Part shown: positions 1,326-29,035 of the stretch, one piece after another
How the letters are laid out: the number at the start of each line of letters is the position of its first letter
Position numbering within the stretch: position 1 is the stretch's first letter
Assembly: GCA_037917685.1 (NCBI GenBank)
Contig: JAVCBU010000006.1
Location: 1 to 64,000, forward strand
From: Thermoproteota archaeon
GTDB taxonomy: Archaea > Korarchaeota > Korarchaeia > Korarchaeales > JAOZGB01
Length of the DNA: 64,000 nt
Reading direction: 5' to 3'
Position numbers and translations under genes: made by a program
Notes under the pieces: model-generated
Database searches by the model: none
Told to the model about the DNA's origin: nothing
What the model saw: the letters and a program-made list of their open reading frames with translations, nothing else

Positions 1326-1428
1326 GGGCCCGTGGCGCAACCAGGGAGCGCGACGGCTTTGCAATCATAGACTGAAAAGCCGTAGGTTGCGGGTTCAAAT
1401 CCCGCCGTGCCTAAGCGCGGAAGGTCCA
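1326..1428 (+). tRNA. tRNA-Ala(TGC) with two introns: 37/38 (1364-1377) and acceptor stem 67/68 (1408-1422)
   Basis: Cloverleaf; splicing both introns gives acceptor GGGCCCG/CGGGTCC+A73 with G3:U70; both introns form BHB-type motifs. Confidence 0.9.
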
Positions 1429-10264: not shown

Positions 10265-10350
10265 TGCGGCCGGCGGGATTCGAACCCGCGACCTCTGGCT
10301 ATCCCCAGGAGTCGGGGGGCCAGAATCCTACCAGACTAGACCACGGCCGC
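10265..10350 (-). tRNA. tRNA-Gly(CCC) with 12-nt 37/38 intron (10301-10312); C33
   Basis: GCGGCCG acceptor; CTGGC-CC-CCC-G[ACTCCTGGGGAT]A-GCCAG. Confidence 0.88.
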
Positions 10351-18632: not shown

Positions 18633-18730
18633 TGCGGCCGCCGGGATTTGAACCCGGGTCTCCGGCTTTCTTCTATACATCGGAAGGCCGGTATCCTATC
18701 TGTCTCAAATCCAGGCTAGACTACGGCCGC
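18633..18730 (-). tRNA. tRNA-Gly(TCC) with a D-loop intron (~18698-18708) and a 13-nt 37/38 intron (18668-18680)
   Basis: GCGGCCG acceptor; CCGGC-CT-TCC-G[ATGTATAGAAGAA]A-GCCGG; the exact D-loop junction is ambiguous. Confidence 0.9.
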
Positions 18731-28903: not shown

Positions 28904-29035
28904 TGGGCCCGGCGGGACTCGAACCCGCGGCCTCCGGCTTTCCTAAGGCTGAGTGACTGACCGCCATATAAGGCATGCGCGCCTGGCTCGGCGCTCCTAC
29001 TGGGTTTAGGTCAGTCCAGGCTGAGCTACGGGCCC
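28904..29035 (-). tRNA. tRNA-Ile(TAT) with three introns: 20a/21 (28998-29013), 29/30 (28975-28988), 37/38 (28940-28966)
   Basis: GGGCCCG/CGGGCCC+A73; after splicing CCGGC-CT-TAT-AA-GCCGG; BHB-type motif at each intron. Confidence 0.88.

Follow-up and report, generated by a model that had tools for sequence, protein, structure and literature searches.

Non-canonical tRNA introns of Archaea have been described at many positions. Those named in the available text of Yoshihisa (2014, PMC4090602) run from 20/21 to 59/60 "etc.", and the 3/4 introns of Thermoproteales, for which Sugahara 2008 is cited, are called "an extreme case". Korarchaeum cryptofilum has non-canonical and multiple tRNA introns, according to the accessible portions of PMC3239211 and PMC4033280. 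The two-unit EndA of Korarchaeota is derived from a fusion of crenarchaeal-type subunits, and the broad specificity of this fused enzyme is a proposal and not the outcome of an assay, in the available part of Fujishima 2011 (PMC3239211). For introns near the gene ends, tRNAscan-SE 2.0 extends its candidates by 60 nt (PMC8450103, in the portion available).

Here, a 64,000-nt stretch of a Korarchaeales genome (the window) was analyzed. It contains a tRNA-Ala(UGC) gene at 1326–1428 that very probably is functional and carries two protein-spliced introns, the second of them at position 67/68 of the acceptor stem. The 67/68 insert is a member of a well-known archaeal intron kind at a rare position, and is not a new mechanism. 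An intron at 67/68 was not found named in the accessible literature, a scope that lies short of the primary catalogues and supplements. Acceptor-stem introns and positions 67 and 68 were also sought as phrases, with no relevant match in the literature, where positions written with a slash are not text-searchable.

The host genome (G000) is 1.81 Mb in length, is assembled in 22 contigs, and is 95% complete. Features of the locus are listed in Table 1. Within the tRNA-Ala(UGC) gene, G1 is at 1326 and the D arm spans 1335–1351. The anticodon stem pairs 1353–1357 with 1379–1383 around a loop at 1358–1364, with UGC at 1360–1362. The T arm spans 1389–1405, its stem pairing 1389–1393 with 1401–1405, and is followed by C66 (1406) and G67 (1407). 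CCA is not encoded. The canonical 37/38 intron has a BHB with a central helix of 3/4 pairs (one U.U), an inner helix of 2 bp, and an outer helix of 5 bp. The TTTAAAA element upstream of G1 lies in a stretch that the window shares unchanged with a diverged metagenome contig (L177); by its position and by general knowledge of archaeal promoters, it would be the promoter of the gene.

Table 1. Coordinates of features at the tRNA-Ala(UGC) locus and of the inserts in the nearby tRNA-His(GUG) gene. All positions are those of the window.
Feature	Position	Strand	Basis or remark
16S rRNA gene, 5′ two-thirds, archaeal	1–1091	minus	At window start; divergent from the tRNA-Ala gene
TATA-box-like element TTTAAAA	1294–1300	plus	About 29 nt upstream of G1; sequence
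tRNA-Ala(UGC) gene, complete, G1–A73, two introns	1326–1428	plus	Sequence, ARAGORN, stem-restoration scan
Exon 1, positions 1–37	1326–1363	plus	Sequence, ARAGORN on spliced form
Canonical 37/38 intron, 14 nt	1364–1377	plus	BHB; removal required for Ala(tgc) call
Exon 2, positions 38–67	1378–1407	plus	Sequence, ARAGORN on spliced form
Second intron (predicted), 15 nt, at 67/68 in the 3′ acceptor strand	1408–1422	plus	BHB, unique stem restoration, kept in relatives
Exon 3, positions 68–73, only 6 nt, with U70 and A73	1423–1428	plus	
BHB central helix, exon strand (T-stem positions 62–65)	1402–1405	plus	4/4 pairs with 1417–1420
BHB central helix, intron strand	1417–1420	plus	Pairs with 1402–1405
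Decoy 3′ acceptor strand and decoy discriminator, read if the insert is retained	1406–1413	plus	6/7 pairs, G3:C70
tRNA-His 8/9 insert, 12 nt	1679–1668	minus	
tRNA-His 29/30 insert, 12 nt	1644–1633	minus	
tRNA-His 37/38 insert, 13 nt	1624–1612	minus	

Read without splicing, the 3′ acceptor strand (1406–1412) forms G1:U72, G3:C70, and a C5:U68 mismatch, and is followed by an A at 1413. Both ARAGORN and Rfam cmscan (52 bits) end the gene at that base (1326–1413). The anticodon of the unspliced gene is given by ARAGORN as "???", or as Cys when introns are allowed. Removal of 1408–1422 joins 1407 to 1423 and yields an acceptor stem of 7/7 pairs with G3:U70 (G1328 with T1425) and A73 (1428). Among all deletions of 8–60 nt after the T stem, this is the only one that gives a 7/7 stem. 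The junction cannot slide, the first and last intron bases being unlike the flanking exon bases. With both inserts removed, ARAGORN predicts a 74-nt tRNA-Ala(tgc), and ViennaRNA gives a clean cloverleaf of −37.0 kcal/mol as the MFE structure. With the 3′ end set at 1413, the MFE structure is not a cloverleaf. G3:U70 is the AlaRS identity pair. The marks of an alanine tRNA, namely G3:U70, A73, and an Ala anticodon, are present together only when 1408–1422 is removed; position 70 otherwise reads C. When 1406–1520 was mononucleotide-shuffled 20,000 times, some 7/7 restoration was possible in 2,388 shuffles, 30 of these also had a BHB, and 3 also had U70 and A73. These results bear out the first-pass annotation, which had placed a 15-nt insert exactly at 67/68, had noted the C5:U68 mismatch and the loss of G3:U70 in the unspliced strand, and had expected annotation tools to call a wrong 3′ end at 1413.

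The 67/68 insert and its exon borders form a BHB around the central helix given in Table 1. The 5′ bulge is at 1406–1408, with a predicted cut after 1407, and the 3′ bulge is at 1421–1423, with a predicted cut after 1422. The inner helix has 2 bp (1409–1410:1415–1416) and closes a 4-nt loop (1411–1414), and the outer helix is the single pair 1401:1424. Both introns of this gene, the 67/68 and the canonical 37/38, would be cut in the same register, two bases into each bulge. The strict hBHBh′ form has flanking helices on both sides, which this motif lacks, and the motif is of the relaxed BHB class (HBh′). Acceptor pairs 1–4:69–72 possibly stand in as the missing outer helix. A BHB of such quality (helix 4/4 plus at least 2 flanking bp) is not rare alone and occurs at 36 of about 7,500 (p,q) boundary pairs in 1332–1475.

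In the cloverleaf, 1402–1405 pair with 1390–1393. The BHB and the T stem are mutually exclusive because the central helix uses T-stem bases 62–65, and the insert carries its own copy of the T-stem partner strand. Both the BHB proposed in the first-pass annotation, with its 4/4 helix and 3-nt bulges, and the opening of the T stem that it was said to need are thus found in these pairings. Nearest-neighbour energies at 37°C are −22.1 kcal/mol for a closed T arm with the insert bulged, −21.4 for the BHB with the outer five acceptor pairs, and −22.5 for the decoy-acceptor conformer that ends at 1413; the three conformers lie within about 1 kcal/mol, too close to discriminate. The unconstrained MFE structure of the precursor (−43.3) is a different fold altogether, and folding of the local region alone gives an MFE structure with a 6-bp helix and a 2 × 2 internal loop in place of the BHB.

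tRNA-Ala(UGC) is needed by the organism because GCA makes up 30% of its alanine codons (7,647 of 25,776 in 769 long open frames). An intact second Ala(UGC) gene, named beforehand, together with silence of this copy, among the observations that would count against the intron, was looked for, and none besides 1326–1428 was found in the 95%-complete assembly. The Ala(CGC) and Ala(GGC) genes of the same genome have normal G3:U70 stems and end in the same letters as 1423–1429 (exon 3 plus C). The genome has 41 tRNA candidates, of which 35 have uninterrupted 7/7 acceptor stems by script and 4 have 7/7 stems by eye with coordinate offsets allowed; the remaining two are a doubtful ARAGORN-only candidate and tRNA-Ala(UGC) itself.

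Species genomes number 40 in the host class and 43 in the host phylum. Ala(UGC) candidates were detected in 33 of the 40 class genomes using a 5′-half pattern. Full-length Ala(UGC) genes were retrieved from other Korarchaeia in 24 cases, and all 24 have an uninterrupted 7/7 stem. Their 3′ strand is the same as the predicted spliced strand in 23 genes and differs at one pair in the 24th, so that the alignment with orthologous genes, which had been suggested as a check, comes out in favor of the predicted junction. Because all 24 relatives are uninterrupted, the 67/68 insert is derived, and it is evidently a recent gain in the genus-level lineage. In the same-genus genome G001 (66% complete), no Ala(UGC) orthologue was found, though Ala(CGC) is present. 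The gene keeps its syntenic place by tRNA-His and tRNA-Gly, where relatives have one Ala(UGC) gene. A blastn-short search of both Ala introns against the genome gave no intron paralogues longer than 13 nt.

The insert was also found in other sequence data, although a search for sequencing runs that contain the locus turned up no RNA run. Logan contigs of the possible source run are identical to the window over 1100–1759, and Logan contigs of at least three further runs, from three studies, hold a related strain with the insert in place. Its presence therefore extends to Logan contigs of at least four runs and to L177, a JGI metagenome contig that is the same variant as the related strain of the three runs. 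As L177 and the three runs possibly sample a single population, they are counted as one comparison. Between L177 and the window, the 103-nt gene differs at 2 positions (1412 and 1414), both in the 4-nt loop of the intron, whereas the flanks differ in 12 of 95 aligned columns on the upstream side and in 20 of 42 on the downstream side. Both substitutions being in the loop, the comparison holds no compensatory change. It shows constraint on the helix-forming parts of the insert, and the insert is evidently no assembly slip. In the related strain, the spacer between the Ala and His genes (1448–1572) is replaced, with 125 nt skipped and 80 other letters in their place in contigs of the three runs; the tRNA genes on either side are conserved.

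A census for further cases was performed on 401 archaeal genomes from 259 genera. One pattern detects tRNAs of the Ala type in which 7 or more additional bases separate the T loop from the conserved 3′ end. A second pattern is bound to the T stem and intron end of the gene described here but not to alanine. Together, they catch only inserts that lie before position 68 in Ala tRNAs or that follow a CCCGC T stem and have a GCGGAA end. The Ala pattern matched 17 places in 14 of the 401 genomes, and 15 of these places are a complete tRNA followed by a chance match. The second pattern matched in 9 of the 401 genomes and, judged from the matched strings, found only the same two real cases. These two are the tRNA-Ala(UGC) described here and a tRNA-Ala(GGC) of genome G261, which belongs to another phylum of the same domain. 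A looser pattern, run over genome contigs, gave 119 stretches; all but one of the 80 listed are bacterial, and from their titles they are taken as chance matches.

The G261 tRNA-Ala(GGC) gene (G261:C24:8000-8101, minus strand; locus L186) has a 27-nt insert at 67/68. Rfam covers only model positions 6–65 of the gene as it stands; with the insert removed, ARAGORN predicts a tRNA-Ala(ggc) of 75 nt. Like the insert described here, it has the same site and exon context, a central helix built from T-stem positions 62–65 and a complementary 4-mer, and two bulged A before G68. Unlike it, the G261 insert has 27 nt and a 6-bp inner helix, and lies in a tRNA with anticodon GGC. A 67/68 insert is absent from the other 64 genomes of the G261 class, and the G261 insert is therefore an independent gain. 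By these comparisons, the 67/68 site is rare and recurrent, and was gained at least twice. The tRNA neighbouring the G261 Ala(GGC) gene (L186 1288–1383, minus strand) has a 25-nt insert in the D loop. In two unrelated archaea (L192, G125:C17; L193, G104:C232), the last 7–8 bases of a complete tRNA-Ala(UGC) are repeated within a few bases of its end, and this repeat could be the attachment-site scar of an integrated element.

Whether 67/68 of tRNA-Ala is a recurrent and selected landing site, rather than an accident, was also considered, and this is unlikely. If it were so, the separation of U70 from G3 together with the decoy end would make charging by AlaRS strictly dependent on splicing. The insert would also disrupt the 3′ portion of the gene, a common attachment site for integrating elements, and gains at the same bond in two phyla, both in tRNA-Ala, would point to a site-specific insertion route or to positive selection. 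The idea that introns protect tRNA genes from integrating elements reportedly goes back to Randau and Soll.

EndA is encoded by one gene outside the window, at about 68,800–69,915 of contig 6 of the host genome (L176:1240-2355). It is a single ORF of 371 aa with two pairs of N-terminal and catalytic domains. The catalytic subunits nearest to its C-terminal half are 3p1z_B, 3ajv_B, 2cv8_A, and 2zyz_B, which we take to be the Aeropyrum, Sulfolobus, and Pyrobaculum enzymes. The alignment of this half passes through the loop region with a gap of only one residue. Homologues include 30 proteins of 344–422 aa with E-values of 1.7e-75 or better, several of which are named Korarchaeota. By domains, catalytic half, and homologues, the enzyme is of the same type as the korarchaeal two-unit (alpha2-type) EndA with a Crenarchaea-specific loop. 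If the published proposal holds, it would take relaxed non-canonical sites such as this one. G261 has only one EndA homologue, of 177 aa, closest to 5x89 and 1a79, with no loop insertion evident by eye.

A route from precursor to charged tRNA can be proposed from these features. The precursor would be transcribed from the TATA-like box at 1294–1300. Bases 1402–1405 would leave their T-stem partner and pair with 1417–1420, forming a 4-bp helix with two 3-nt bulges and a 2-bp intron hairpin. The 371-aa EndA would capture this BHB conformer and cut after 1407 and after 1422. RtcB, the gene for which is present in the genome, would join G67 to G68, and the 6-nt last exon would meanwhile be held by five pairs to the 5′ strand. 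The T stem would then re-form and the acceptor stem close with G3:U70 and A73, allowing AlaRS to charge the tRNA. End trimming and CCA addition would come after ligation. Splicing probably precedes trimming, because the last exon would be lost if tRNase Z acted on the decoy helix beforehand.

Other readings of the locus were weighed against a functional gene with a second intron. The 15-nt insertion may have broken the acceptor stem of a copy that is now decaying, with no splicing at the site and the functional Ala(UGC) gene located in the ~5% of the genome that the assembly lacks. An assembly that is 95% complete and split in 22 contigs leaves room for such a gene. This is nevertheless very unlikely, since a population with flanks >10% diverged has identical exons, and the BHB falls precisely on the one pair of boundaries that restores the stem. 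The place by tRNA-His and tRNA-Gly is also kept, as in relatives with one Ala(UGC) gene there, and the same architecture occurs independently in G261. Fainter still is the chance that the tRNA ends at 1413, with a 6/7 acceptor stem and G3:C70, and works unspliced as an odd tRNA or with another identity. Although ARAGORN and Rfam (52 bits) model the gene in this way and the decoy conformer has a nominal stability advantage of 0.4 kcal/mol over the next of the three, GCA codons would have no reader without G3:U70. The C5:U68 mismatch would stand against 39 other tRNA genes with 7/7 stems (35 by script and 4 by eye), the predicted fold of this form departs from a cloverleaf as described above, and the exact conservation of 1415–1428 is left unexplained.

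The insert might also be removed or bypassed in another way, through other boundaries, by another nuclease, or by staying in the mature tRNA as a bulged hairpin. We know of no precedent for a 15-nt bulge inside an acceptor stem. The nearly absent outer BHB helix would suit a route other than EndA, as would G261, where the same kind of insert occurs with only the 177-aa EndA homologue and no loop insertion evident by eye. No other boundary pair restores the stem, however, the junction cannot slide, and the cut register is that of the canonical intron, and we give this reading the same very small weight as an end at 1413. Splicing of the 15-nt insert from a functional tRNA-Ala(UGC) precursor is the reading preferred here.

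A second interrupted gene is found next to tRNA-Ala(UGC). tRNA-His(GUG) is encoded at 1577–1688 of the window on the minus strand and is reported by neither ARAGORN nor Rfam. Brute-force decoding of this locus with up to two inserts gave no solution, and a relaxed run was ambiguous; the locus was solved by synteny with relatives, whose His gene lies at the same syntenic position and is uninterrupted. Once the three inserts listed in Table 1 are removed, ARAGORN predicts a tRNA-His(gtg) of 74 nt. The 8/9 and 29/30 inserts have 10 of 12 bases in common. The 8/9 insert draws on acceptor-stem bases 3–6 for its BHB helix, and the organism thus tolerates BHB sites that are based on the acceptor stem. 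All three inserts are preserved in L177, where a bulge and a loop carry one change each. In the leader, at 1693–1699 on the minus strand and 5 nt upstream of the gene, the seven bases of the 5′ acceptor strand of tRNA-His are found again, either by chance or through a small duplication.

Rfam detects only 36 tRNA genes above its threshold in the 95%-complete genome, and more interrupted genes may therefore be hidden in it. Separately, several other tRNA genes of this genome seem, by eye, to contain additional sequence in the D arm or the anticodon stem, either on top of a canonical intron or in place of one. In the window they lie at 18633–18730, 28904–29035, and 10265–10350, all on the minus strand, and elsewhere in the genome at G000:C6:164134–164209, C6:215283–215366, and C22:38400–38551.

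These genes bear on annotation. Standard finders end tRNA-Ala(UGC) 15 bases early with an unknown or wrong type and miss tRNA-His entirely, and for this reason essential tRNAs will seem to be missing from korarchaeal MAGs. The 67/68 site is a demanding natural substrate for the fused korarchaeal EndA, combining unfolding of the T stem, a 6-nt last exon, and a decoy helix. The use of the same bond in two phyla and the twin 12-nt inserts of tRNA-His provide small, datable cases of the entry of intron DNA into tRNA genes.

The closest described systems are the non-canonical BHB introns of Crenarchaeota, Korarchaeum, Nanoarchaeota, ARMAN, and Asgard archaea. As described in the available part of PMC4090602, they share with the 67/68 insert a short length, a 3-4-3 BHB, and a motif of which half is built from exon. 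They also accompany a canonical intron, and their hosts have an EndA with an extra loop that has been linked to broad specificity (PMC3239211 and PMC4033280, in the portions available). The insert described here differs from them in its position at 67/68 in the 3′ acceptor strand, in its 6-nt last exon, and in the T stem that must open. The 3/4 introns of Thermoproteales resemble it in lying inside the acceptor stem and in bordering a very short terminal exon, according to the accessible text of PMC4090602. Those introns, however, interrupt the 5′ strand and belong to another phylum, whereas the 67/68 insert interrupts the 3′ strand between U70 and the T stem and imitates an acceptor strand with its own first bases.
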